This document shows, one piece after another, positions 3,947 through 60,578 of a stretch of DNA of 64,000 bases. Source of the stretch: Candidatus Poribacteria bacterium (GTDB lineage Bacteria > Poribacteria > WGA-4E > WGA-3G); assembly GCA_964291315.2 (NCBI GenBank), contig OZ219753.1, positions 192,001 through 256,000 of the forward strand, in the 5' to 3' direction. A model generated the notes under the pieces. It made no database searches, was not told where the DNA came from, and was given only the letters and a program-made list of their open reading frames with translations. The stretch's first letter is position 1. Every line of letters begins with the position of its first letter. The position numbers were made by a program, and so were the translations under genes.

Positions 3947-6900
3947 ATGTCAGGATATTACAGATTTCCAACAATTTGTCAGGAGACTATTGTTTTTGTA
4001 TGTGAAGATGACTTATGGACAGTTCCAGTCGAAGGCGGTATTGCCCGAAGACTCACATCAAATCGTGGGGCAGCAAGCTCTCCATGTTTATCCCCGAATG
4101 GCGAATTGCTTGCTTTTTCTGGGCGTGAGGAAGGTCCGTCAGAGGTTTATGTTATGCCTGCCCTTGGCGGTGAGGCGAAGCGCCTCACTTATCAAGGTAG
4201 CAACGCTGCTGTTGTTAATTGGGATGCTGAGGGTGAATATATCCTCTATTCAAGCGGTGCTGGTTTAGCATTTGATCCATGGATATGGAAAATTTCCGCA
4301 GAAGGTGGAGAGCCGCAACGACTTGCCTACGGACCTGCTAATCACATCGACTTCGGCAACGCGGGCCGGGTGATCATCGGGCGATTGACGCGAGAACCCG
4401 CACGGTGGAAACGCTACCGGGGCGGTACAGCTGGACAACTCTGGGTAGACATCAAGGGAGATGGGGAATTCCGCCACATCGCGCCTGTCGATGGTAATTT
4501 CACTGCACCCATGTGGATCGGCGAACGTCTCTATTTTATTTCGGACCATGAAGGAGTCGGAAACATCTACTCCTGCTTCCCTGACGGTGCGGGCGTTCAA
4601 CGCCACACTCACCAGGATATCTACTACTGCCGCTCGGCGCAAACAGATGGAACCCAGATCGTCTACCATGCTGGCGCAGACTTGTTTGTTTATGACATTG
4701 GAAGCGACACCGACACTCGCGTTGATGTTGAGTTCCGCAGCCCGCGTATTCAGAGACAGCGGAAGTTTATTAGTGCATCGAGATATCTACGAGAGTATGC
4801 CCTAACCCCGGATGGACATGCATTAGCTTTGACAGTCCGGGGCAAACCCTTTACTATGGCGAATTGGGAGGGCGCTGTTCTCCAACATGGCGAGCGCAAT
4901 GGAACGCGTTACCGCTTTACAAAGTGGCTCAATGATGCCAAACGTCTTATTACCCTTTCTGATGCTGGTGGAGAGGAAGCACTTGAAATCCATACACTCG
5001 ATGACAGTGCAGACATAATCCGTTTTGACACGTTTGACCTCGGACATGTTCGTTCTCTTACAGTCTCACCACAAACGAAGGCAGGCAAAAGTGACTGTTT
5101 ACTTCTAACTAACAACCGTTTTGAGCTTCTGCACATTGACCTCGAAATGCAGAAAATGCGGATCCTTGACGAAAGTATCTATCGGAGCATCCAAGGCGCG
5201 GCGTGGTCCCCTGACGGCGAATGGTGTGCATATAGTTTTTCATCAACAGAGACTACTATTTCGATCAAACTCTGCAAAATCGCGACAGGTGAAACATGGC
5301 TCATTACCCAGCCTGAGTTTAAAGATTTTTCACCTGCGTGGGACCCCGATGGGAAGTATCTCTACTTTCTTTCGTACCGTGAATTCAATCCAATTTACGA
5401 TGCGCTTCACTTTGATCTGGGTTTTCCTTCAGCGATGCGTCCGTTTTTGATAACTTTGCAGGAGACTCTAGGGAATCCGTTCGTGCCGGAGCCGCGTCCA
5501 TTTGAAGAGGAGAAGGAAGATAGGGACAAGGAAAACCAAGAAGAGCAACCAGAATCGTTCGTTGAGAAGGACGACGGGGCTGAGAAGGAAAGCCCACCGA
5601 TCACCATCAATCTAGATGGGATTTCACAACGTGTTGTCGCTTTTCCCTATCCGCGAGGACATTATGGACAGATTGCCGGCATTGAGGGCAAGGTCATCTT
5701 TACTTCCTTTCCTTCGCAAGAGGTATCAGATCCTCTCACTGATGATAGCAATACGGGACGGGGCAAGCTCCACTCCTATGATTTCAAGGAGCAGAAAAAA
5801 GAGATGCTTGTTTCAGGTATTACGGATTTTCAACTCTCTGGTGATGCGAAGACGCTTGTATATTCTAGCGGAAATCGGTTGCGTGTTATCAGAGCAGGTA
5901 AAAAAATCGAAGACACCTCGAAGTCTGGGCATAAAGGTGACCCAAGTCGCCAAAATGGTTGGGTTGATCTCAACCGTATCAAAGCTTCTGTCATTCCCAC
6001 GTCCGAGTGGTATCAGATGTATCGAGAGGCGTGGCGCCTTCAACGAGATTACTTTTGGACAGCGGATATGTCTGGCGTGGATTGGGAAAACGTCTATCAA
6101 CGTTATCTTCCACTCCTCGACCGAATTGCAACGCGCGGAGAATTTTCTGACCTCATGTGGGAGATGCAAGGCGAGCTCGGCACCTCACACGCCTATGAAT
6201 TTGGGGGCGATTATCGCAATTCACCGAATTATGCCCAGGGGTTTCTCGGTGCTGATTGTGCCTATGATGCTGAGAGCGGAGGGTATCGCGTCACGCATAT
6301 TCCGCAAGGCGATCCTTGGGAAACAACGAAGAATTCTCCGCTGAATGCCCCTGGTGTTAACGTCCGCGTAGGAGATATTTTGCTTGCGATCGGGGGACAA
6401 AGCGTCAGCGAAACCGTTTCGCCCTGTGAACTCTTAGTGAACCTCGCTAACCAAGAGGTACAAGCTGTCTTCCAAAACGCGGAGGATAGCGAGAAACGTT
6501 TTGTTACGCTCAAAGTGTTGGGAAGTGAAAAAGAGTTACTGTATCGCGAGTGGGTGTCCCGAAATCGGCAATACGTCCATGAAAAAACGGATGGAAAAGT
6601 CGGATATGTCCATATTCCAGATATGTCGCGACGTGGATATGCAGAGTTTCACCGTGGTTTTCTTGCTGAGGTTAGTTATCCGGGGTTATTGGTTGATGTC
6701 CGTTATAATGGTGGTGGACACGTTTCCCAATTGCTTTTGGAGAAATTGGCGCGGCGTCGGATCGGCTATGACGTGCCGCGTTGGGGAACACCACACCCGT
6801 ACCCAGATGCTTCAGTCCTCGGTCCGATAGTGGCGGTTACTAACGAAAACGCAGGTTCTGACGGCGATATCTTCTCACACTGCTTTAAACTCATGGATCT

Positions 6901-43512: not shown

Positions 43513-45479
43513 TTATAGATACGGTTTCATATCCCAGAGCAGGATCGTCCCATCAAAACTGCCACTCGCCAAAAGCGTGCCATCCGGGGAAAAGGCAAGA
43601 TCCTGAACATCGGTAGGGTGTCCCCAAAAGGTTACGATATTCTCACCACTGACAACATCCCATAAACGGATGGAGACTTTCTCGGTGCCTTGCCACCAAG
43701 AACCGGATGCAAGATACCGCCCACACGGTGAAAACGCTAACGCAAATGGATAATAACATCCGAGTGGTGGAAGTATGGACATCGAAATGTCATAAGTTTT
43801 GCATCCCACAAGCGGATCTCTCGATGGAGCCCACCTGCGATGATATTGCCACAAGGTGAAAAAGCGAGCGTCTGAATCTGGATAGAACGCTGTTTTGGCA
43901 CAGTTTTGGAACAGGAGTTACTCCGTCTTTGAATTTCACCAGCATCTCCTTTATACAAGGAAGTGTCTAAAAGTGGTGTTAAGCACAGCAAAGCAATCTC
44001 TCTGCCTGACACAACATCCCACACACGGGCTGTTTTATCTCTTGAAGCACTTGCAAGTCGATTTTCATTAGGAGAGAACACCAAGGCCTCAATGAACTCA
44101 GTATGCCCAATAAGGACTGCCCGTTTTCCCCGATAATCCCATACGTACATTTTCCCTTCTATATCCGCACTTGCCCAGAGTCCACTTGTAGGTGCAAACG
44201 CAGTTCTCTTTACATACTCATCTTGTTCGGCAAGCGTGGCAATCGTTTCGTTGGTTTCAACATTCCACACACACATTGTGTTTTTCTGGGTGCCCAGCGC
44301 GTGAATGCTACCATCTGGGGAAATGGAGATGGAATGGATGCAGGTTTGGGCACGGCGGATATGCCGCGGTTGTTCCTTGGCGACATCCCAACAGGTGGCA
44401 AGTCCGGAACCGGCACTTATAAGCTTTTCTCCATCGGCGGAGAACGTCAGGGAAAACGGTAAGTGTGTGTGCCCAGGAATAGAAGATACTCGATGAATGT
44501 TATCCGCAGTCCATACTTTGAAATCAAAAGCACTTGCAACCGCCAGATGGGTACCCCTTGAAAAGCACATCGCACGGATGGTGTCCCGATGTTCAAACGT
44601 CTTCAGTTTTTTACCTTTTTCGACATCCCACACGGTGATTGTGGTCGCATTAACACCAGCCGCATGCAGTTCTCCTGACGCGGTGTAAGAGGGGATCACT
44701 CTATACTTTTGCGCGTATTCAGAGGAGGCCCACACTTGCCCTTCAGTGGCGATATCCCATACGCGTAAAATGCCAGACTTGTCCCCGGAGGCGAGTAACC
44801 GCCCACAAGGTGAAAAGGAGAGGGCATACACCTGGGTCGTATGCCCTCTGAAACAGGCAACGCGCTCACCAGTACTCACATTCCAGACAGAAATCAAATC
44901 AGCATGAGGGGTGGCACCAGGGCTTACACATGCCAAAAGGCAATCATTCGGGGAAAAAGTCAGGGGGATAGCGGGCCTATAGCTGCGATAAGCGGTATTG
45001 TCTGTGAATCGGGTAACTTCTTCACCTGTTTTTGAGTGCCAAATGAAAACAACCGCCTCTCGTTGACAGGATGCTGCAAGCAGAACGCCCCCTCGCGAAA
45101 AGGCGATCTGGGAAATCTTCTGTGGTTTCCGCGGCTGCTCCATCTCACTGATACAGACACAACCCTTCACATCCCACACCTTTACAATACCATCCCAGTT
45201 GCCAGTAGCGAGCCATCTTCCACATGTTGAAAAATCAACAGCAGAAACTAGCCCCCGCTCCGTCTCCCACAAATCCACCGGAGACATTGTAGCTAATTTA
45301 TACCACCAGAGTCCAAGGCGAGTGCATAAAATCAGATGTGAACCATCTGGCGAAAAGGTTATGGCTTGGACCCATCCCCTTCCCAATCGGGAGATTGCTC
45401 CTTTGGGGAGGTCCCATTTGGTGATGTCCGTGTAGGTACGGGAGCCTTGAATAGAAATAGGCGGAATTCTGCTGCTCAT
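43513..45479 (-). pseudogene. WD40-repeat protein split by a single-base frameshift
   Basis: Repeated FSP.G..LASG...I.LWD units; frames join at 43797-43800 if one A is added (EIRLWDA-KTYDIS). Confidence 0.85.
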
Positions 45480-45609
45480 CAAATCACTCCTATAAACAAG
45501 GTTTGGACACATTAAGGGAAATGTGTCACGAATTGGCCAAACTTTTATCCTATGAGTAAACGAAATTGAAACGGCTTGCCAAATACGTTACTCCTTTGCC
45601 TCGTTTGAA

Positions 45610-47062: not shown

Positions 47063-48994
47063 ATGAGAGAAGATGAACTTCCGAAATCGCACGGTGTCAC
47101 ATGGAAATCTATTGCTATTACACTCGTGTTGATTCCGTTTAATTTCTATTGGATCATCGCTGGCGAAGTCGGACTCGTCGGTTACGCGTTGAATACGTAT
47201 GCGGTGCCTTTTTATAACGTTGTCTTCGTTGTATTTGCTTTTACCCTCCTCAATCTCGCGCTTCGCCGCCGCTTATTCACCGATGCGGAACTCCTTACAA
47301 TATATATACTGCTCAGCACAGCTTGCACGTTCCCTTCTATTACGTTGATGACGATCCTCGTCACGACTGTGGGGCATGCTTTCTGGTTTGCTACTCCGGA
47401 AAATGAGTGGAGGCAGCTCTTCTGGGATTACCTTCCGAGGTGGCTTCTTGTGGACGATCCTAAGGTATTGTGGGGATACTATAAAGGAGAATCCAATCTT
47501 TCTACACTAGACATCATCGGCGCATGGTTAGTTCCGGCGTTGTCTTGGGTAGGTTTCATGACGGTTATAGTTCTCATGATGTTATGTATCAACGTCATCT
47601 TACGAAAGCAGTGGGTCGAACGAGAACGCCTCGCGTATCCCATCACACAGATAGCGTTCTATCTTACCCATAACACAAAATCCCTGTTTGCGAGCCGGGT
47701 CACATGGGTGGGTTTTGGCGTTGCAGCGGGCATTGCGATTCTCAACGGCTTCAGTTTTCTGTATCCAACCCTCCCTACTTTGCCTATTAAGCGTATCGGG
47801 GGTTGGCATGGTTTTGGACATCTGTTCACCGAAAAACCGTGGAATGCTATCGGGGCGATCAGTATGTCCTATTACCCCTTTGTCATCGGCCTTGGGCTTT
47901 TGATGCCGTTAGACCTCTCTTTCTCGAGCTGGTTCTTCTTTATCTTCTATAAGGCACAATTGGTGCTTACAAGTGCAGCTGGACTTTCTAGCCTGCCCGG
48001 ATTTCCGTATATTGATAGACAATGTTTTGGGGCAGCTATCGGGATTTTTATCTTTGTGTTTGGGCTGAACCTGCGCCATTTCCGCGGAGTCCTCCGGATT
48101 GTCTATCGCGGCACAGGGGAAGATTCTGACGAGCCTATTCCGTATGGGCTGGCATTGTATGGTATCGTTGGGGGACTCATTATACTCTTTATTTTCTCTA
48201 AGCGGATCGGTATGTCGCTCTGGTTAATTCCACTGTTTTTCGCGATCTACTTTATCATTGTCTTAGTACTAACACGCATGCGCGCCGAACAAGGGTTTCC
48301 TGTGCATGCAATGGAAAATATGCCGAACCATCAGATCCTCGTTGACGCTTTTGGGACACGGATGTTGGGCACAAACAACCTTGTAGCCTTGACGCTCTAT
48401 CGTTGGTTCAACCGCAGTTACACAAGCAATCCGATGCCACATCAGTTAGAAGGTTTTAAGCTCTCGGAACGTTCTAGCATCGCACCGAGGCGACTGTTTC
48501 TTGCATTATTAGGGGTTTCCGCATTTGCTGCTGTGATGGTATTTGCCGTTATCCTCTACCTTTTTTACACGTATGGTGCGTTAAACATGAGTGGTGGCAG
48601 CAGCTGGTCAACCGGTTTTGGTGGGCGTGTCTTCAACGGACTTCAACGTTGGTTCTATTACCCCACAGAACCCAATTTTTATGCCACCGGCGGTATCGTA
48701 TTCGGTTTACTCTTTTCAACGTTCTTAATGTTCATGCGAGCACGTTTTTTTTGGTGGCCCTTTCATCCGATTGGGTTCGTCGTTTCAAGCGATTGGGGTA
48801 TGCGGTATTTATGGAGTTGTATGCTCGTAAGCTCAATTATCAAATGGAGTGTTTTGAAGATGGGTGGATCGCGCTCATCACAGCAATTGGTGATGTTCGC
48901 GATCGGTTTGATGTTAGGTGATTTTACGGTGGGCGGTCTCTGGAGCCTTGTAAGTGTGGTGACGCAGCGACCGATGTACAATTTTTGGCCATAG
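47063..48994 (+). CDS. polytopic membrane protein, putative peptide transporter (DUF6785/DUF6784-like)
   Basis: ELLTIY, RKQWVERERLAYP, GLLMPLDLSFS.WFF, RMRAE.G.P, WWPFHPIG. Confidence 0.8.
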   Translation: MREDELPKSHGVTWKSIAITLVLIPFNFYWIIAGEVGLVGYALNTYAVPFYNVVFVVFAFTLLNLALRRRLFTDAELLTIYILLSTACTFPSITLMTILVTTVGHAFWFATPENEWRQLFWDYLPRWLLVDDPKVLWGYYKGESNLSTLDIIGAWLVPALSWVGFMTVIVLMMLCINVILRKQWVERERLAYPITQIAFYLTHNTKSLFASRVTWVGFGVAAGIAILNGFSFLYPTLPTLPIKRIGGWHGFGHLFTEKPWNAIGAISMSYYPFVIGLGLLMPLDLSFSSWFFFIFYKAQLVLTSAAGLSSLPGFPYIDRQCFGAAIGIFIFVFGLNLRHFRGVLRIVYRGTGEDSDEPIPYGLALYGIVGGLIILFIFSKRIGMSLWLIPLFFAIYFIIVLVLTRMRAEQGFPVHAMENMPNHQILVDAFGTRMLGTNNLVALTLYRWFNRSYTSNPMPHQLEGFKLSERSSIAPRRLFLALLGVSAFAAVMVFAVILYLFYTYGALNMSGGSSWSTGFGGRVFNGLQRWFYYPTEPNFYATGGIVFGLLFSTFLMFMRARFFWWPFHPIGFVVSSDWGMRYLWSCMLVSSIIKWSVLKMGGSRSSQQLVMFAIGLMLGDFTVGGLWSLVSVVTQRPMYNFWP

Positions 48995-52937: not shown

Positions 52938-54353
52938 CTAACGCCCTTCGTCAGCGATAATAGAGCCTGGCATGATGTAATGTTTCCCTTTGGTTAGTTG
53001 CGCAACTCTGCGTTGGAAATTATCCGAAATTGAGCTGCTTCGCATAGAGGTGACGCCCCCTATAACATAAATTTTTGCGAACGTCCCTCGGCACACTGAA
53101 ATCGCTTGCCTTACGGTATACCCTTTTTTGGTACGCTTGCTTGTTGATTCATCTGTAACAATGATAAAAACAAGATCGCGCGATGAGTCGATTCGAAGTT
53201 TCGGTATACCCTCAATTACAGCATCTAATAAATGTTCATCACCCATTTTGGGAAGACGAAAGAGGGATTTCACTTGCTCGGGTTCCAGGGGTGGGTTGGT
53301 CACGACAACAGTACTTTCGCCGCCCCCAACTGCTGCCCAAAATCTGATAATTCCAAACCTATAATCCAATCCTGCTGACTTAAATACAGAAACCATCTGA
53401 TCCAAGCCGTCACAGGCAGCATCGGTTTTCGTTTCCATGCTTAGGCTGTAATCGAAGATGAACACAACATCTATTTTTTGCAGATGACTTGCAACCAGGT
53501 TTTCCGCAATACGCTTGAATATACCGTCTAAGCGGAGTAAGGCTTTATCTGCTATTGTATCTCCACTCCGGATCCGTTGTCCATCTATCCGTTGCTGCTT
53601 TGAGTCAATAGGATACCATTTTCCGGCTGTTTCATCTGTAAGCTCCGCTTGGACCCTCTCACTAATACCGATAAAATTGATCTGAACATTGTTTTGACGG
53701 GATCGGCTGATAATTTGATTACTAATTTTGTTTTTCGCTTTTGCGTCTGTCCATGAGGTCCGTATGCGTGAGTTGGTAACCACGACAAATTGCGTTGTAA
53801 CCTCATCGCGGAATTCCAATTCGTTCAGTCCCTTCACAACAGCATCAAGCCCATAGCCTGATCCGGTATTATTCCCCGATTCAACCCTTATATTTTGGAG
53901 TGTATTAACAATACTGAGATAGTCAAATGTCCAGGGATGAAGAGCCACGCGCGGTTCCGCTTGCACCGAGTGAAAACTTACCAGGGCGAATCTGTAGTCC
54001 ATCGTTTTTGCCTCTATAACAGTGAGCATATCAACGATTTTCTTTTCAAGGACAGAGAGATGTGCTCTCATCCGCCTACTACCATCAACCACAAACACGA
54101 CATCTATCTTCGGAGTTTGGGCGTGCTGTGTTGTCCGTTGTGCAATATCTTTGAGACTTGCACCTATATCTGCCTTTAATACCCTCTTTTTTTCTTTGGC
54201 ACTTTGATCTACCATTATTCTGTGTCTTCGGCGAGGGGGGCGGATCTGTGCCGATGCTTGCAGCGTGCCCACTACTATACTCATTACACACAAGCAACAT
54301 ATCCAAATTTTTAGATGCTGCTTACAGACCAAAACTTGCATGATAAAAGCCAT
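52938..54353 (-). CDS. exported protein with two VWA domains
   Basis: IDVVFVVDGSRRM and IDVVFIFDYSLSM, DYRF, VTDE; ATG 54353 after GGAG. Confidence 0.8.
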   Translation of the reverse strand: MAFIMQVLVCKQHLKIWICCLCVMSIVVGTLQASAQIRPPRRRHRIMVDQSAKEKKRVLKADIGASLKDIAQRTTQHAQTPKIDVVFVVDGSRRMRAHLSVLEKKIVDMLTVIEAKTMDYRFALVSFHSVQAEPRVALHPWTFDYLSIVNTLQNIRVESGNNTGSGYGLDAVVKGLNELEFRDEVTTQFVVVTNSRIRTSWTDAKAKNKISNQIISRSRQNNVQINFIGISERVQAELTDETAGKWYPIDSKQQRIDGQRIRSGDTIADKALLRLDGIFKRIAENLVASHLQKIDVVFIFDYSLSMETKTDAACDGLDQMVSVFKSAGLDYRFGIIRFWAAVGGGESTVVVTNPPLEPEQVKSLFRLPKMGDEHLLDAVIEGIPKLRIDSSRDLVFIIVTDESTSKRTKKGYTVRQAISVCRGTFAKIYVIGGVTSMRSSSISDNFQRRVAQLTKGKHYIMPGSIIADEGR

Positions 54354-54602
54354 ATTATCTCCAATCAAAATTCTGTATGAAAACCTGATGCACTTAGCAA
54401 ACATTTCTGTAGTAAACATCAAATTGTTTTCCGGTGAAGGGTTTTCAAAACTTTTCTCGGATGCCGCGCTATCAAATTCGCGCTAGCCCGGTATGTGTGT
54501 CTCTTCGGAAAGGTGGTCGATTTGTCATAAAATCCCATTAACTTCGTTGTCAAATCTCATTAGATTCGAAAAGAAGCGAATCTTCCAATAAAGTCTTCAC
54601 AA

Positions 54603-55619
54603 CTAATATGTATCTAAGTCAATTTCTTCTTCGCTAAACCGCAGGTGTGCTTGATTAATGAGCTCAACAATAGCTGTCCACTGCTTCTGCGTTTCATCAG
54701 ATGCACCTTCTGTCTCAAGCAATTTAGCAAACTCAAGGAGAGTTTCGCTAAACTTATTTTGTAGGTAGACATACTCCTCAGTCTGATCTGCATTCTTCGG
54801 AGGCTCGAAATCCGAGATGCTCTTGGCATATTTGGCTAGGCGTTTTGCTGCCTGAATAGCTTCTGTTTTGCTCTCTTTTTCCTCGAAGTAGTCCATAATG
54901 ACAAAATAGTCGTCTATCATCAACGCCATGAGGGCTTTTAGGTCTTCGACCTCGGGTATCTGTTCCGTTGGCGTATCCGGCTCTGGTGTTTTTTCTTCCT
55001 CAAGGCTCGGCTTGTTTTTTCTGAAGAGGGCGTAACTCATTACCAACGCCTTCTTTGGAATCAAAGCGACAGCGTTTGAGGCATCCTCATGTCCTTCAAT
55101 GGCTGTAACGTCTTTCTTAACCTTGAAAAGATTATCTATCCCCATACCGACGAACTGTTTGAGAAATGCCTCTTCTGCAATCGCGGCCGACTCCTTATGG
55201 CGATAGACTGCTATTTTCACAACCTTTCCTTTCATATCCAATCCAACGGCCCCTTCAATTACACCCTGGGGCCCCTTGCTATCGGAAAAAAGCACTAAGC
55301 CCATCGGTTTCTTTTCGTTGTTGATTGGAATGTAGAAAATCGGTTTCAGATCTGTTGTCCGAAGCTTCGTTCCCAGTTTTTCCTCAATTGCGGTGATTTT
55401 CGCTGGGCTGAGTATAACACTTCGCTGAACAAAACGTTTGGCTTTTGGAAACATAACCGCCAGCTTTTGCTTTGGGTATTCTGTTTCATGTGTGTCGCTA
55501 AGTAAGGCAGGGCTTAAAAGAAAAAAGGCAAACGCCAACAAAATACCTATATAGTGTTTATAGCGTTGGCGGTAGATTGGGGCGAGAAATTGAAAACAAA
55601 TCAAATCCCGGGGTTGCAT
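54603..55619 (-). CDS. exported FMN-bind-like domain protein with C-terminal helical bundle
   Basis: N-terminal hydrophobic helix, KGPQG.I..AVGLD..GKV, FLKQFVG. Confidence 0.72.
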   Translation of the reverse strand: MQPRDLICFQFLAPIYRQRYKHYIGILLAFAFFLLSPALLSDTHETEYPKQKLAVMFPKAKRFVQRSVILSPAKITAIEEKLGTKLRTTDLKPIFYIPINNEKKPMGLVLFSDSKGPQGVIEGAVGLDMKGKVVKIAVYRHKESAAIAEEAFLKQFVGMGIDNLFKVKKDVTAIEGHEDASNAVALIPKKALVMSYALFRKNKPSLEEEKTPEPDTPTEQIPEVEDLKALMALMIDDYFVIMDYFEEKESKTEAIQAAKRLAKYAKSISDFEPPKNADQTEEYVYLQNKFSETLLEFAKLLETEGASDETQKQWTAIVELINQAHLRFSEEEIDLDTY

Positions 55620-55623
55620 TATA

Positions 55624-55701
55624 TGCCTCCGTGAAATTAAAACGCAAGAACGCCCGATACCGAGCGAAACTTGCGTTTTGTGCCTCCGTGAAATTAAAAC
55701 G
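55624..55701. repeat. 21-bp direct repeat flanking a hairpin
   Basis: TGCCTCCGTGAAATTAAAACG at 55624-55644 and 55681-55701; AAAACGCAAG/CTTGCGTTTT inverted repeat. Confidence 0.85.
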
Positions 55702-56746
55702 AATAGGTTGTAGTCAAAGAAACCAAATTGCCAAATTCAATCGCATCCCCTTCATCATAAAGCGTCTCTTGCGTCAGCGGAATCATCACGTTGGCAGACA
55801 GGCTCATATCGGTCAGTATTTTCAAGGATACACCGAGTGCTGCCATGCTGTAACGTAGACCTGTATTAATGTCCTTCTCGCCAGCCCAGGCAGCAGGGGA
55901 CTGGTAAAGGCCGAGATAGTTTGCATTAAATGTGAACTGATCGAAAAGGCGATATGTCCAACCAGCTGTATAGGTTAACTCTATTGGAGCCCTATAAGTT
56001 TTGCTGTTCTCGTAGATAGGAAACGTTCCACGGCCGGAAGCAGTAAGCGTCATACCTCGGTAGAGCGGTAGACTATACTGCAGACTGGCAGTAGGATTAA
56101 AGGTGCCAGTACCAAACTGGATATGAAGGTGTTCAATACCTGCATCTCCAAGTTTCCACGGATTTTCTTCTGTTTTGCCGGTTGGAATCGTCGCCCCTAA
56201 CCGAGCAAACAGCGTGTCATCTGTTCTAAAAATGCCATGGCTTTTATAACCGAAGAACAGATCTGAATCCGAGAGACCGGTATAGGTTTCATCTCGATGA
56301 TGGATATCCCTACTCCGCAAGATCGCTTGCTCATCTTCAACATTGACTGGGTCAATCCATTCAATGCTTGCGTCTTGATCCTTGACTGCATACGGAATGT
56401 TTGCTTGTAAAAACCAGCGAGCATTAAGTAAGTATTGTAAGCCAACATCAATTCGGTAAGTACTCAAAGTTACACGGTGCCTATGCAAAGGCACGTCTAT
56501 CACTTCCCCTATTGTTGACAACCCTGTCGATGCTAGATGTCCGCCTCGCGCATCGGGGGACATTAACATATTGACATTTACTCGAAATTGCGCTGTCTCT
56601 TTTGAAGTCAAACTGACTTCACTCATCAAACCGCTTGGCGGTAAGACGGGATTGCTTCACGCAGGACAACTCTCTTGTGCGAAGCCGACAGAAATAAAAA
56701 TCCAATTCATTAACAGCGCGTATAAAAACGAACGTATTTTCGTCAT
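55694..56746 (-). CDS. outer-membrane beta-barrel (transporter-like) protein with in-frame UGA in a CxxU motif; candidate selenoprotein
   Basis: Signal peptide, QESCPA-TGA(56659-56657)-SNP in frame with ORF 55694-56629; GLSD, PTGK, QFGTG motifs; terminal TYSF. Confidence 0.72.
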
Positions 56747-56919
56747 TTGTAACCATCCTAATAAAGTATTGTAATGCAGCGAAACACAAGACGCTGCACC
56801 ACAGATTTCCAGCACTAACTTTTATTGTGAGACAGTGCGGAAAAACAGGGTATAAGAATTTCTAAAATAACGGATAGGTGCGTTTGATTTGAAAGGCACC
56901 TTAGGGAGTCTATCTACCG

Positions 56920-57354
56920 CTATGTAGACGGAGGGCCTCTACGGGATAAGAAAAATTCGAGGTAAAATATTGATGTTAGAGGGTCGGAAAGAGGCTCAAG
57001 GCGGTATCGGGGCAGGATAAGCGAACTTGCTGAAATAGGAAGGATTGAAACGGGGACGTATCCAATCAATTCAGGGGAGCCAGATGTGTTGTACCTATCG
57101 TCTGGAAGCACAAGCTCTAAGTTGGTAGAGCAACACAATTTCCTACTTTCTGATGGCGCACTCTCTCCATCCGCAGCGTCTGCTTCGCTTCCGGAGCAGC
57201 AACTTGCGCGAATTTTTACATCCCCATTCAGAAATTTTTGAGGAGATCCGGGACAGAACCGTTGTCCGAAAGCCGTACAAAGAAGCGGGCATACCGAATA
57301 AACGTACAATAGGCCTACAAGTAGGATGAGAGCTTGTCGATGTTTCTGCGACAT
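56920..57354 (-). CDS. Cys-rich upstream ORF ending in RGPP (DUF2946-like arrest peptide)
   Basis: Hydrophobic N-terminus, CPLLC, two CC pairs, Pro-rich tail ending RRGPPST*; GGAG RBS. Confidence 0.75.
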   Translation of the reverse strand: MSQKHRQALILLVGLLYVYSVCPLLCTAFGQRFCPGSPQKFLNGDVKIRASCCSGSEADAADGESAPSESRKLCCSTNLELVLPDDRYNTSGSPELIGYVPVSILPISASSLILPRYRLEPLSDPLTSIFYLEFFLSRRGPPST

Positions 57355-57648: not shown

Positions 57649-59049
57649 TTAAACCTCAACGCGGACGAAAGTTAAATAACTGCCTAACAGAAGCACGATG
57701 AGAAATAGCACTAACAGCAGGAGTTCTGTCGCTGTGCTATCAAAATTGCGCGTCAGACTGCGCGTGTCCTCAAAGACCGGGATGGATTCTGGGATGACAG
57801 CTCGCTGCGACATGCCCTCACGAACCCCTACAAAGTGAAGACTCTCTGGATCTGCCTTGTCGGTATATACGATGAATTCCATGTACTCACGCGCGTACCG
57901 CTGGGCGTTCTCTAAAAATTGAAGATGCCGTTCGAATCCTGTGGCGGCGAACGATTCTAGGAGGTAATGGAAAATCGCAGCGGGCGAAATACGCGTGATG
58001 GAACGCGCACGTTTCACCTGGGCAACCTGGCGGGCTAAGTGTTCATCAATTAAACGTTGCTGTGTCGCTACGTCTTTGATGACATAATCACTTCCGGCCC
58101 GCATATTTTCCTGCTCAGACCCACCCAATGTGTTCCAGTATTTCTCTACTTGTTCTTCATTAACTTGCTTTTGGCGAGCTCGAAGTTCGTCAGCAGACAT
58201 CAAGGGGGCTCGCCTACTAGCAATGGAGGCGAGAAGGTTGGGCGTAAAAACCACAAAGGTAACCCAGGTCAGCAGAAGTATCACTAGTGCTACTACGCTT
58301 CGGCCCACACGCGCCGACACAAGCAACCCTAACGCCAGAAAAATACACATATAAAGAAGTGTAATGCAGTATATAATACCCAAACGTCCCCAACCAGAGG
58401 CACTAATATGAACCGTACTTGCCGTGGAGATCACCAATAAATTCATCAACACAGCAAACGTGAAGGGGATGTTAAGTGTGAAGAGGGCCCCTAAAAATTT
58501 GCCAACTAGCACTACATGGCGCGGCATCGAATTCGTTAGCATCAGTCGCAGCGTACCCCGCTCACGCTCGCTAGACACCGAATCAAAAGTTAACAACAGC
58601 GCGACCAGGCTCAAGATATAGCCGCTGATGAACCCCCAATCCACTTTCATAACCGCTGGTCGAATATTTGTCAGATTCGGGGTAGCAGGTGGATACACCA
58701 TTCGCCAGAAACTCTTTAGATCCCCGTTTACCCAAACATGGTGTTTCCCTTGAACGGTATCTGGCAAAAAGGTATCGCTGCTTGCTGCACAGAAATGGAG
58801 GTCCGAAGGTTTTTTGTAAAGTCTTCCGGGGCCTTGACGCGCTAGTTCGTACAGACTGCCCGTGAGTGTCTCTAAAGCGTTGCGGGCCTCCTCGCTAGCG
58901 GTGAGATACGTTTGTAAGCGCGCGGGGTGTTCTTGCAGATGCACGATGGCGTTCGTCAACATTAATCCCAACAACAGTGCGGTCGTGAGTCCGAATCGGA
59001 GGTTATTGAGGTTGTCATAGAGTTCCCGTTTTGCTATATGCCAAATCAT
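57649..59049 (-). CDS. large ABC-2 type permease subunit
   Basis: IAKREL, FDSVSSERERGTLRL, GKFLG, ISPA. Confidence 0.85.
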   Translation of the reverse strand: MIWHIAKRELYDNLNNLRFGLTTALLLGLMLTNAIVHLQEHPARLQTYLTASEEARNALETLTGSLYELARQGPGRLYKKPSDLHFCAASSDTFLPDTVQGKHHVWVNGDLKSFWRMVYPPATPNLTNIRPAVMKVDWGFISGYILSLVALLLTFDSVSSERERGTLRLMLTNSMPRHVVLVGKFLGALFTLNIPFTFAVLMNLLVISTASTVHISASGWGRLGIIYCITLLYMCIFLALGLLVSARVGRSVVALVILLLTWVTFVVFTPNLLASIASRRAPLMSADELRARQKQVNEEQVEKYWNTLGGSEQENMRAGSDYVIKDVATQQRLIDEHLARQVAQVKRARSITRISPAAIFHYLLESFAATGFERHLQFLENAQRYAREYMEFIVYTDKADPESLHFVGVREGMSQRAVIPESIPVFEDTRSLTRNFDSTATELLLLVLFLIVLLLGSYLTFVRVEV

Positions 59050-59057
59050 TTTTTTCG

Positions 59058-60578
59058 TTACGTTACTTCTCTTTTGAGAAAAATCAGAAATATTATGATA
59101 AATAGAACAACATTGATTATCAGGAGTAGAAACTGATCAGGCATAGCACGTTTCGCATTTATTCGGATGTCGCTTCTCTGAAAAGTGAATTGGGGGAGTG
59201 TGCTCCAGTCCGCTGCCTCTTCGTGTGCAGTGAACCACTGTGGAGACTCGAACGTTTTTCTATCGTATAAGTAACCGATCACTGTGTTTCTGTATTGTCG
59301 AACCGCCTCGAAAAAGTCTTGATTCCCTTTTAAACCGGTACCTGCCCAGGCTTGGGTTGCCGAGTCGTATATCCCTATTGGAGAAAGTTTGAGCCAGTTT
59401 CTATCAACTACAGCTGGGCGCACGAAGATATCATGGAGCGCAGATTTTCGAGTGATCCAGGTTCGATCTGCTGTGTTAATAACCCGGGGTACGAGGAACC
59501 CATAGTAATTTTGAACGACGGGTATCTGGGGTAGGTATCTATCGTAGAGTTTGTTAAAGTATATTACACTCCAATAGTAATAAGCCAGGGTCGATCGGTC
59601 TCCGCTAAACCCATCGCCGCCACCCCCGCCAGCGGGCCCATCCATGTTAAACATCGGGTCCTCCCCCGGGGCAGTATCAGTTTCGAGAAAGCGTTTCCGC
59701 TCTCTCTCAAATTCTCCCCATATCTGTTTGATTTGATGGTAAACCGCTGATGTACGTGTTTTCGGGGGGGCAATCGGATTTATTGTCGCGAGGATCATGT
59801 TCGGATAGACTAGCACCCAAAATACCCAAACGAACATGCACATAATGAGGGTAGTGCTGGTGCTGCGCGTTATCGCTGAAATCAGCATGCCCATGAGATA
59901 GAATATTGACAGATACGCGATAGAAGCCCAAACAATTCCAGCAACCCGTACAAAATCATCGGACTTTAGGGAAATAGACGCGGATGTCACCATCAAAATC
60001 AGCGCAAAGATCAGACTCACAAGCAACGGAACAAGCAAGCAGAGCATCGCACTGACGTATTTTGCAAGCAGTATCGTCCCCCTACGGACGGGATGCGTCA
60101 AAATCAAACGTAAGGTGCCAGCTTCAATCTCTCCTACAAGAGCATCGTAGGCAAATATGAGTGCAAGTAGACTGAGAACGATCTCAAAAATAAATACAAT
60201 ATCGATCGCAGAGAAGATGTTGAGGAACGAGTTATGTAACCCATGCATCTCAGCGTCCCATAGCGAAGGCACAAATTCATGAGATACCAAGATTTCGTTC
60301 CCGATCCGTTTATCTAAGCCTGCATTGAAGATGCTCATAGGATTGGGGGGCCTGTCAACTTGCAGTTTTCTTATCCCCAATGAATAGGTTTTTGTATCGT
60401 GTACTTCTTGATGATGTGTTTTAACGGAGGTGTCGTAACTCGCTAACCGCTGATCGTAGTCATTGATGAGCACAAAAGTAGCAGCAACCACTAGCGTCAA
60501 CATAATAAAGACAGCTGCTACGAAACGGAAAGTCATCAGGTTGTCGAGGAGTTCACGCCGAATGAGTGGGATTAACAT
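59058..60578 (-). CDS. large ABC-2 type permease subunit (paralog)
   Basis: IRREL, YDALVGEIEAGTLRL...PVRR...LAKY, LSP. Confidence 0.85.
   Translation of the reverse strand: MLIPLIRRELLDNLMTFRFVAAVFIMLTLVVAATFVLINDYDQRLASYDTSVKTHHQEVHDTKTYSLGIRKLQVDRPPNPMSIFNAGLDKRIGNEILVSHEFVPSLWDAEMHGLHNSFLNIFSAIDIVFIFEIVLSLLALIFAYDALVGEIEAGTLRLILTHPVRRGTILLAKYVSAMLCLLVPLLVSLIFALILMVTSASISLKSDDFVRVAGIVWASIAYLSIFYLMGMLISAITRSTSTTLIMCMFVWVFWVLVYPNMILATINPIAPPKTRTSAVYHQIKQIWGEFERERKRFLETDTAPGEDPMFNMDGPAGGGGGDGFSGDRSTLAYYYWSVIYFNKLYDRYLPQIPVVQNYYGFLVPRVINTADRTWITRKSALHDIFVRPAVVDRNWLKLSPIGIYDSATQAWAGTGLKGNQDFFEAVRQYRNTVIGYLYDRKTFESPQWFTAHEEAADWSTLPQFTFQRSDIRINAKRAMPDQFLLLIINVVLFIIIFLIFLKREVT

Follow-up and report, generated by a model that had tools for sequence, protein, structure and literature searches.

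Results

A gene with one in-frame UGA lies behind a shortened ORF

The window analysed here is a stretch of 64,000 nucleotides (nt) of Candidatus Poribacteria DNA (assembly GCA_964291315.2, contig OZ219753.1, positions 192,001 to 256,000), and the subject of this report is a gene on its minus strand, at 55694..56746, that encodes a putative selenoprotein with a predicted beta-barrel fold. In the open reading frame (ORF) listing, made with translation table 11, this place is occupied by an ORF of 311 amino acids (aa) with a TTG start (55694..56629, minus strand). Translation of the DNA upstream of TTG 56629 showed that the frame stays open to an ATG at 56746-56744 except for a single TGA at 56659-56657. 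The whole gene then comprises 350 codons, from this ATG through one in-frame UGA to the TAA at 55696-55694. With the TGA read as selenocysteine (Sec, U), the 350-aa product starts with MTKIRSFLYALLMNWIFISVGFA-QESCPAU-SNPVLPPSGL and ends in TYSF directly before the TAA. The original prediction had proposed exactly this frame, with the ATG at 56746, a signal peptide, C-P-A followed by the TGA at 56659-56657, 350 residues and the TYSF end, and every part of it was recovered.

Residues 1-23 (MTKIRSFLYALLMNWIFISVGFA; 56678..56746, minus strand) have the basic n-region, the hydrophobic core and the small-x-small end of a signal peptide on inspection of the sequence, and AlphaFold2 places a helix at residues 2-20. 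The product is therefore predicted to be an exported precursor that is cleaved after G-F-A. The C-P-A-U motif (56657..56668, minus strand), which consists of Cys27 (TGT, 56668-56666), two intervening codons and the presumed Sec30 (TGA, 56659-56657), lies within an invariant block, Q-E-S-C-P-A-U-S-N-P, close behind the predicted cleavage site. Orthologues of 347-355 aa with an identical layout were found in 30 loci, in which the signal peptide drifts conservatively, the following 17 residues are invariant and the DNA 5′ of the ATG is unrelated between genomes. Because positions 56450-56900 did not differ in a single letter from two public contig runs, both from one study and possibly the source of the assembly itself, the TGA does not appear to be a consensus slip. 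No public RNA run was listed for this DNA.

The UGA is conserved and exchanges with Cys codons

The source genome (4 contigs, 4.4 Mb) contains SelA (profile match of 515 bits), a SelB wing domain directly adjoining the tRNA-Sec gene (78 bits) and a SelD that is itself of the Sec type, with its own in-frame TGA; SelA, SelB, SelD and tRNA-Sec all exceed their curated cut-offs. Other genes of this genome with a single in-frame TGA are three HMA-like genes (GMT-U-xx-C) and one FdhA-like gene. The three HMA-like genes, two of them in tandem (G000:C4:1113047-1113724 and G000:C3:363065-363274), have the TGA in the metal-binding motif (GMT-U-GSC, GMT-U-QAC) and a hairpin with a G-rich loop 25-29 nt downstream of it, and they probably encode Sec-containing metallochaperone-like proteins. 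The FdhA-like gene (G000:C4:696287-697030) has the canonical S-R-A-U-H site and an E. coli-like selenocysteine insertion sequence (SECIS) loop, GGUCU, at nt 22-26.

We searched the read-through protein in six frames against 61 related Candidatus Poribacteria genomes and found a match in 54 of them. One or two in-frame TGAs were present in 87 of the 88 matches with E ≤ 6e-61, and the 88th strong match starts at residue 70, with the motif region outside the match. In a phylum-wide sample, the gene was present in 122 of 151 genomes, with one to three TGAs in all 150 matches listed (the best 150 of 219); none of the 11 genomes sampled from families f5-f9 yielded a match. In the named GTDB collection, 75 of the best 80 loci belong to Candidatus or uncultured Poribacteria, and the other 5 carry the name 'uncultured bacterium'. 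The TGA stands at the motif site across four families of the order, at protein identities of 35-79%, and all 30 orthologous loci read GF[AT]QES-C-P-A-U-SNP[VI]LPPSG.

All gene callers end or begin an ORF at this TGA, as would be expected if it were a stop codon, either in a pseudogene or between a 29-codon leader ORF and a signal-less barrel ORF that starts at TTG 56629. The best 120 of 599 database entries, which are 252-312 aa long, cover at most 89% of the query and never its N-terminal part, would fit the same explanation, as would the pseudogenes that the original prediction mentions for other parts of the window. However, the TGA and its flanks are conserved in at least 122 genomes from four families, the residues in front of it are invariant and more conserved than the remainder of the protein, full-length homologues have a Cys at the aligned site, and an outer-membrane barrel without a signal could not be exported. 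We consider a stop codon at this position very improbable.

Because 8 of the 30 orthologous genes terminate with TGA, this codon still functions as a stop in the lineage, which argues against an altered code or tRNA by which it would specify a different amino acid, such as Trp or Gly. Two database entries (P0164 and P0166) do have a W at the site, reflecting the gene caller's choice of code. In-frame TGAs are confined to positions equivalent to Cys in metal or redox motifs, each of them is followed by structured RNA, and the genome has the full Sec machinery, all of which leave such a reassignment scarcely credible.

Both positions of the motif vary between Sec and Cys, position 27 being U in paralogues and positions 27 and 30 both being C in distant homologues. 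A paralogue in the same genome (G000:C4:674618-675694) reads Q-[ED]-S-U-G-A-U-S-N-P, with two TGAs, and homologues in three other families of the order are also U-G-A-U. Cys at the first position appears in separate places, as C-P-A-U in the orthologue group described here, C-G-A-U in genomes G040, G102 and G143, C-A-A-U in G115 and C-S-A-U in G039. From 100 distinct sequences, the motif being masked, we computed a quick maximum-likelihood tree; duplicates, X-containing rows and rows in which the part behind the motif is shorter than 290 or longer than 345 residues were left out. UxxU and CxxU interchange at least five times on this tree; the position of its root is not fixed, and no direction is assigned to these changes. 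One locus in G115 (L170, G115:C1:6229400-6245100) has two barrel copies 2.5 kb apart, one C-A-A-U and one U-G-A-U, with a transposase fragment and a cation-efflux gene between them, an arrangement that points to a duplication of recent date in which Sec and Cys were exchanged.

When 1.84 billion representatives were searched with a profile, 513 proteins were returned, most of them N-terminally truncated calls, and the full-length ones among them have C-P-A-C-S-N-P, C-A-A-C-G-N-P or C-A-G-C-R-N-P directly behind the signal peptide. Profiles of the Sec-type and Cys-type proteins align from end to end in hhalign (probability 100%, E 9e-78), with the motifs superposed. In a metagenome scan, a U-P-A-U group adjoins a C-P-A-C clade, and the 67 metagenome loci comprise 27 with UxxU, 20 with CxxC, 3 with CxxU and 17, mostly fragments, without a complete motif. 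A conserved TGA together with Sec/Cys exchange is the classical signature of a selenoprotein family. The tests that the original prediction had proposed, namely a TGA at the site in several lineages, a Cys in others and the presence of selA, selB, selC and selD, thus all turned out in its favour. We conclude that the in-frame TGA at 56659-56657 very probably specifies Sec and, from these sequence data, we infer that Sec is inserted into the barrel protein.

Two conserved hairpins follow the UGA

Hairpin 1, the best SECIS candidate (56624..56648, minus strand; RNAfold), carries its loop at nt 23-25, the U of the UGA being nt 1. Its inner stem pairs ACCGC (56642-56638) with GCGGU (56634-56630) around a CAA loop (56637-56635) that lies 20 nt past the UGA, and positions 56648-56645 form outer pairs with 56627-56624. 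Hairpin 2 (56603..56621, minus strand) has an 8-bp stem and a GUU loop and is conserved with compensatory changes. Both hairpins had been part of the original prediction, and together they make up the minimum-energy structure in RNAfold (-20.9 kcal/mol).

Each of the 30 orthologous loci examined has the motif, the TGA and both hairpins, and two neighbouring hairpins follow the second (or only) UGA in 43 of 43 distinct homologous sequences. A hairpin at the place of hairpin 1 is kept in all 43 despite changes in the peptide. Thirty-five of these sequences are more stable than synonymous re-codings (shuffle fraction ≤0.05), with a median z of -2.4, the sequences being related and the trials hence not independent. 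For hairpin 2, 91.6% of 368 cells are paired compared to 24-49% in slid controls, changes on both sides occur in 4 of the 8 pairs (e.g., the closing pair A-U becomes G-C in 12 sequences), and the covariation score was reached by none of 500 shuffles. The only structures that RNAalifold returned on a MAFFT alignment were hairpin 2 and a trivial helix of 2 bp. Codon indels and alternative 5′ arms keep hairpin 1 from aligning by column, and it was therefore assessed sequence by sequence. A scan of 56400-56900 against Rfam identified no family, its sole row being a chance snoRNA match (E 6.4).

SECIS loops in the same genome lie at nt 21-23 (SelD), 22-26 (FdhA-like, GGUCU) and about 25-29 (HMA genes), and the loop of hairpin 1 falls in the range of these five other Sec genes. 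Because of this match in position, we take hairpin 1 as the likelier SECIS element. Its loop is mostly G-U-G, G-U-A or G-G-A in the UxxU genes. Hairpin 2 may be either a conserved accessory element or a second SelB site.

The product models as a barrel with invariant His, Glu and Asp residues

The part of the protein that follows the motif (approximately residues 54-350; 55697..56587, minus strand) is a beta-barrel body according to AlphaFold2 and Foldseek. The AlphaFold2 model, built from a 26-sequence alignment, has a mean predicted local distance difference test (pLDDT) score of 78.4 and a predicted template modelling (pTM) score of 0.74 and consists of a beta-barrel and the signal helix; the strand list from DSSP is compatible with about 12 long strands. 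The best Foldseek match is FapF (5o67; E 1e-12, template modelling (TM) scores 0.57/0.68), and the COG4313 channel 4rl8 was also matched (E 1.4e-10, TM scores 0.56/0.71). The protein thus models as a barrel that resembles the 12-stranded COG4313 and FapF barrels. The 'porin' of the original prediction needs refinement, the predicted fold resembling this 12-stranded type and not a general porin.

No NCBIfam family matched the barrel protein at E ≤ 0.01, and Cys-type relatives score 18-19 bits or not at all against the Phenol_MetA_deg family (PF13557); in Atlas clusters of relatives, 51-75% of the members carry PF13557, which we treat as a lead only. In 26 Sec-type sequences, the invariant N-terminal columns are Q24, C27, A29, U30, S31, N32, P33 and P36. 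In these and 12 Cys-type sequences taken together, [C/U]27, [C/U]30, N32, P33, H70, H90, H149-H150-R151-x-E153, D160 and H206-x-H208 are invariant, and H88 is so in the Sec-type set only. We accordingly define the family by a signal peptide, [C/U]-x-x-[C/U]-x-N-P at the mature N-terminus, H70, H90, HHRxE149-153, D160 and HxH206-208, all of which are present in the protein described here. The terminal Phe, which would be a BAM signal according to the original prediction, is replaced by L or I in several homologues.

The likeness of the fold to a COG4313 channel, together with a near-threshold score for Phenol_MetA_deg, would also be expected of an uptake channel for hydrophobic or small organic molecules, in which the N-terminus is a mere plug and selenium has a structural or protective role. 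COG4313 proteins have been linked to the import of hydrophobic molecules, according to the accessible part of the source (PMC4493636). The gene context of the UxxU paralogues points the same way, the f1 paralogue being located between an aldo-keto reductase (AKR) gene and an SBP_bac_5 ABC importer; among paralogue loci from four genera of the family, the importer adjoins the barrel in L066, L167 and L168, and L169 has the AKR gene only. However, a plain plug does not need an invariant [C/U]xx[C/U]xNP with repeated Sec/Cys exchange, no catabolic genes are conserved nearby, and the accessible part of PMC4493636 mentions no such invariant set of His, Glu and Asp residues for COG4313. We therefore regard such an uptake channel as improbable.

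Relatives of the barrel gene lie among metal-handling genes

Among 17 loci of Cys-type or U-P-A-U barrels that were scanned, 12 have a gene for a fusion of an HMA and a thioredoxin domain directly upstream of the barrel. The wider neighbourhoods of these Cys-type and U-P-A-U loci include MerA (TIGR02053, 493 bits, cut-off 454), MerTP (273 and 204 bits, cut-off 180), a copper P-type ATPase, a CusA/CzcA pump and a ZIP transporter. Regulatory genes are present there as well, namely five for CsoR-type repressors and one for a regulator of the ArsR type. Fused proteins exist as well, with the barrel joined to an HMA domain (P0135) or to thioredoxin (P0222, P0224, P0233 and P0244). In P0135, the HMA match is limited to the fused C-terminal domain, and the 350-aa barrel protein itself has no HMA match. 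In the database clusters, the Cys-type proteins are named only 'hypothetical protein' or thioredoxin. The guess of a 'metal-binding or redox' function in the original prediction is thus backed by the context of the Cys-type relatives, from the HMA-thioredoxin fusion, MerA and MerTP to the copper ATPase, CusA/CzcA and the CsoR-type repressors.

On two metagenome contigs (L195, at about 4230-4944, and L197), the gene upstream of the U-P-A-U barrel is a lipoprotein-like HMA-thioredoxin gene with two in-frame TGAs in its HMA motif, GMT-U-PSG-U, behind which the thioredoxin motif is an unchanged WCGPC. From its sequence, this gene product looks like a second unlisted double-Sec protein, and in L195 and L197 the barrel and its HMA-thioredoxin partner seem to have made the change to selenium jointly. 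One Poribacteria genus (f3 g6) has, in three genomes (G044, G115 and G127), a gene for cation efflux (CDF) next to the barrel gene.

In the window, the gene directly upstream of the barrel (56920..57354, minus strand) encodes a 144-aa protein that we consider a candidate partner. An alignment of 37 sequences shows a hydrophobic helix at its N-terminus, seven cysteines that do not vary (C22-x3-C26, C34, C52C53, C74C75) and an R-G-P-P end. In the orthologue loci, too, its gene immediately precedes that of the barrel. Diverged forms precede barrels in two other families (L069, L070, L170, L171, L173 and L164 with E ≤ 1e-5, those in L170, L171, L173 and L164 ranging from 4e-7 to 1e-5, and L163 with E 1e-3), and no seven-Cys gene was found beside the f1 UxxU paralogue. 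The protein has 192 database homologues, none of them named or in a Pfam family, and scans against Pfam and NCBIfam assigned no family to it. Two candidate assignments were rejected: DUF6769, a lead from the Atlas, reached only E 0.22 in one of three sequences, and a likeness to MerTP had an hhalign probability of 0.2%.

The same neighbourhoods bear on the question of whether the Cys/Sec pair of a genuine selenoprotein barrel is a redox centre instead of a metal ligand. As a thiol-selenol/disulfide relay, it could then reduce or isomerise a substrate in the periplasm or at the surface, or it could gate the channel by forming a selenenyl-sulfide. Most of the catalogued CxxU and UxxC selenoproteins are considered redox proteins (PMC13188914), thioredoxin domains occur in fusion with the barrel or in the products of adjoining genes, and the upstream seven-Cys protein has vicinal cysteines. 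The thioredoxin partner, however, nearly always also has an HMA domain, the wider neighbours are metal-specific, and the three invariant His pairs of the barrel are typical of metal sites. A purely redox role, which would agree with the thioredoxin partners, is the main alternative but unlikely in our view, and the redox and metal readings are mutually compatible.

Further features of the window

A scan for promoters and terminators in the region returned matches that were not above chance. The stretch that separates the stop codon of the barrel gene from the next ATG (55619) has a direct repeat of 19 nt, TTTTAATTTCACGGAGGCA, at 55699-55681 and 55642-55624 (minus strand), with GGAGG in each copy, and its copies enclose an inverted repeat, AAAACGCAAG ... 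CTTGCGTTTT (55679-55670 and 55648-55639, minus strand). These repeats (55624-55699) could represent a duplicated ribosome-binding region around a terminator-like or attenuator-like hairpin, a hairpin that was absent from the output of the simple terminator scan.

The product of the next gene (54603-55619, minus strand) has 338 aa, a hydrophobic stretch at its N-terminus and a match below threshold to an FMN_bind/RnfG-like domain (21.4 bits, cut-off 22); this gene is followed by one for a 494-aa VWA-domain protein (52938-54422, minus strand). Behind the barrel gene of the close orthologue locus in genome G024, both proteins are found in the same position (75 and 72% identity, respectively), which is not so in other lineages. 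On the other side, two adjoining genes for ABC-2 type permeases of 466 and 506 aa, each with a DUF3526 region, occupy 57649-60578 (minus strand); no ATPase gene was seen between them and the seven-Cys gene, and they are not conserved beside the barrel in G024. The neighbours of the barrel in the window, i.e., the FMN_bind-like and VWA proteins and the ABC-2 permeases, are not shared with the paralogues or with other families. Farther away are genes for a 643-aa DUF6785+DUF6784 protein (47063-48994, plus strand) and a 591-aa WD40-repeat protein (43737-45512, minus strand); WD40-rich genes are also present near a barrel paralogue in L166. Repeat proteins of this eukaryote-like kind are typical of sponge symbionts.

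Discussion

A probable selenoprotein barrel that may handle thiophilic metals

The explanation that we find most probable overall is one intact selenoprotein barrel gene of a sponge symbiont, the product of which takes part in the handling of thiophilic metals. For the function as such, the handling of metals such as Hg or Cu, we have a slight preference over the other possibilities. According to this model, the UGA at 56659-56657 would be decoded as Sec by SelB and tRNA-Sec, guided by the stem-loop or stem-loops just downstream. The product would be exported, its 23-residue signal peptide cleaved, and a barrel of the 12-stranded COG4313/FapF type inserted into the outer membrane. Its first mature residues, Q-E-S-C-P-A-U-S-N-P, would present a flexible thiol/selenol pair on the periplasmic side and, by analogy with the solved COG4313 channel, this N-terminal segment may reach a lumen lined with the invariant histidines. 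The Cys/Sec pair (Sec/Sec in the paralogues) and the His sites could bind a thiophilic metal, Hg(II) or Cu(I) and possibly Zn or Cd, which would pass through the outer membrane, either towards or away from a partner rich in cysteines that is located in the periplasm or in a membrane. In the lineage described here, the partner would be the seven-Cys protein encoded directly upstream, and in the Cys-type relatives it would be the HMA-thioredoxin fusion, feeding MerTP/MerA or copper efflux. Selenium would serve as a permanently ionised, tightly metal-binding and easily re-reduced ligand in the oxidising periplasm. The hairpin chosen as the SECIS element, the N-terminal topology, the metal ion and the direction in which it is transported, and the contact with the partner are the components of the model that we infer.

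Several observations weigh against parts of this model. The loop of hairpin 1 is C-A-A, C-C-A or C-G-A in this orthologue group and lacks the G that is usual in bacterial SECIS loops, a caveat that the original prediction had raised and that the CAA loop found here upholds. The GUU loop of hairpin 2 lies 43 nt past the UGA. Bacterial SECIS loops usually lie 16-37 nt after the UGA, and hairpin 2 is thus beyond the usual range. Residues 16-50 of the AlphaFold2 model have a pLDDT below 50, so their placement is not fixed by the model. The score for PF13557, 21.7 bits, is below the cut-off of 22.0, and a profile of the barrel family had no match at E ≤ 10 among all PDB sequences. No mer, cop or HMA gene is located near the barrel in the 64-kb window, and the neighbourhoods in Poribacteria vary by lineage, comprising the seven-Cys gene, the AKR gene with the SBP_bac_5 importer, the CDF gene or BlaI/BlaR-like genes. 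Because of this, the link to metals rests mainly on distant Cys-type and U-P-A-U relatives that are 24-48% identical.

A wider hypothesis would join these elements into one system. The barrel family, lined with histidines, would be the missing outer-membrane component of mercury and copper systems, its N-terminal dithiol handing the metal to the HMA-thioredoxin partner or, in Poribacteria, to the seven-Cys partner. The whole relay would have been rebuilt with selenium in sponge symbionts and some marine lineages, with a U-x-x-U barrel and a GMT-U-xxx-U partner, and a single compound SECIS of two hairpins would direct the decoding of two UGAs that are only 6 nt apart. We put this forward tentatively and consider it doubtful that all of its parts hold jointly.

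The finding concerns an uncatalogued, widespread and very probable selenoprotein family, present in 122 of the 151 sampled genomes of the phylum and in marine metagenome lineages, and it would place selenium at the outer membrane and in the periplasm. Gene callers shorten the barrel gene to a signal-less ORF, by which an exported protein is mis-annotated as cytoplasmic and, because every gene caller truncates it, the selenoproteomes of sponge symbionts are undercounted. The occurrence of CxxC, CxxU and UxxU forms provides a natural set for asking what Sec adds at a metal or redox site, and UGA-x-x-UGA with two conserved hairpins is a compact case for the rules of SECIS spacing. The loci with MerA, MerTP, the copper ATPase and CusA suggest a dedicated outer-membrane step in mercury or copper handling, of which our literature searches found no description.

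Comparison with known systems

The COG4313 channel (Pput2725, PDB 4RL8; PF13557) is like the barrel described here in its predicted fold, its similar size and its N-terminal segment before strand 1. In the accessible part of its description, the N-terminal approximately 14 residues of 4RL8 occupy the lumen from the periplasmic side (PMC4493636). In contrast to that channel, our barrel remains below the PF13557 cut-off and has no significant PDB sequence match, the [C/U]xx[C/U]xNP N-terminus and the HxH, HHRxE and HxH set are specific to its family, and the context of the family is metal handling, not the uptake of hydrophobic compounds. The likeness to the FapF amyloid secretion channel (PDB 5O65/5O67) is one of fold only, at an identity of 13%; no fap genes were seen near the barrel, and the Cys/Sec motif is not shared. 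FapF is a 12-stranded barrel closed by a plug.

The chemistry, Sec in place of Cys in a CxxC heavy-metal motif, is shared with NF041115 (UxxU metal-binding) and NF045683 (MerT/CopZ fusion-like), both of which are listed selenoproteins tied to the handling of Hg or other metals. These are small soluble or inner-membrane HMA/MerT proteins, whereas the motif here is at the mature N-terminus of an outer-membrane barrel; the scans against Pfam and NCBIfam gave no match of the barrel protein to the HMA-type NF041115 model. The original prediction had called an exported Sec-containing barrel unusual. There is precedent for such a barrel, as the most complete catalogue consulted, from 2026, which lists 119 prokaryotic selenoprotein families including metal-binding UxxU and MerT-type ones, contains the outer-membrane selenoproteins GSU2204/MtrB-PioB barrel (NF041027) and an FCYXU-type TonB-dependent receptor (NF049945) (PMC13188914). 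Sec in an outer-membrane barrel, predicted for the protein described here, is common to all of these, but NF041027 and NF049945 belong to other families and folds, are large barrels and have their Sec elsewhere, and neither was matched by our protein at E ≤ 0.01. The barrel family is absent from the 119 families of that catalogue (PMC13188914, Table 1), the literature search found no paper that combines selenocysteine with COG4313, and the accessible parts of the literature on Poribacteria and selenocysteine do not appear to concern the barrel protein.

With the mer relay (MerP to MerT to MerA), the Cys-type relatives share a position, adjoining MerA and MerTP and sitting behind an HMA (MerP-like) fusion, and by analogy this suggests a hand-over chain of paired thiols, although the barrel has no homology to Mer proteins. 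No outer-membrane component of mer systems was found described in the literature search. The outer-membrane copper protein PcoB (PcoB/CopB type) is a barrel with an N-terminal metal-binding tail.

Overall, because NF041027, NF049945 and the UxxU and MerT-type selenoproteins have been catalogued, an exported Sec barrel and Sec in metal motifs each have precedent. What is new here is the conserved seven-Cys partner, an HMA-thioredoxin partner that is itself a candidate selenoprotein in one lineage, the MerA and MerTP neighbours and the analysis of the two RNA hairpins.

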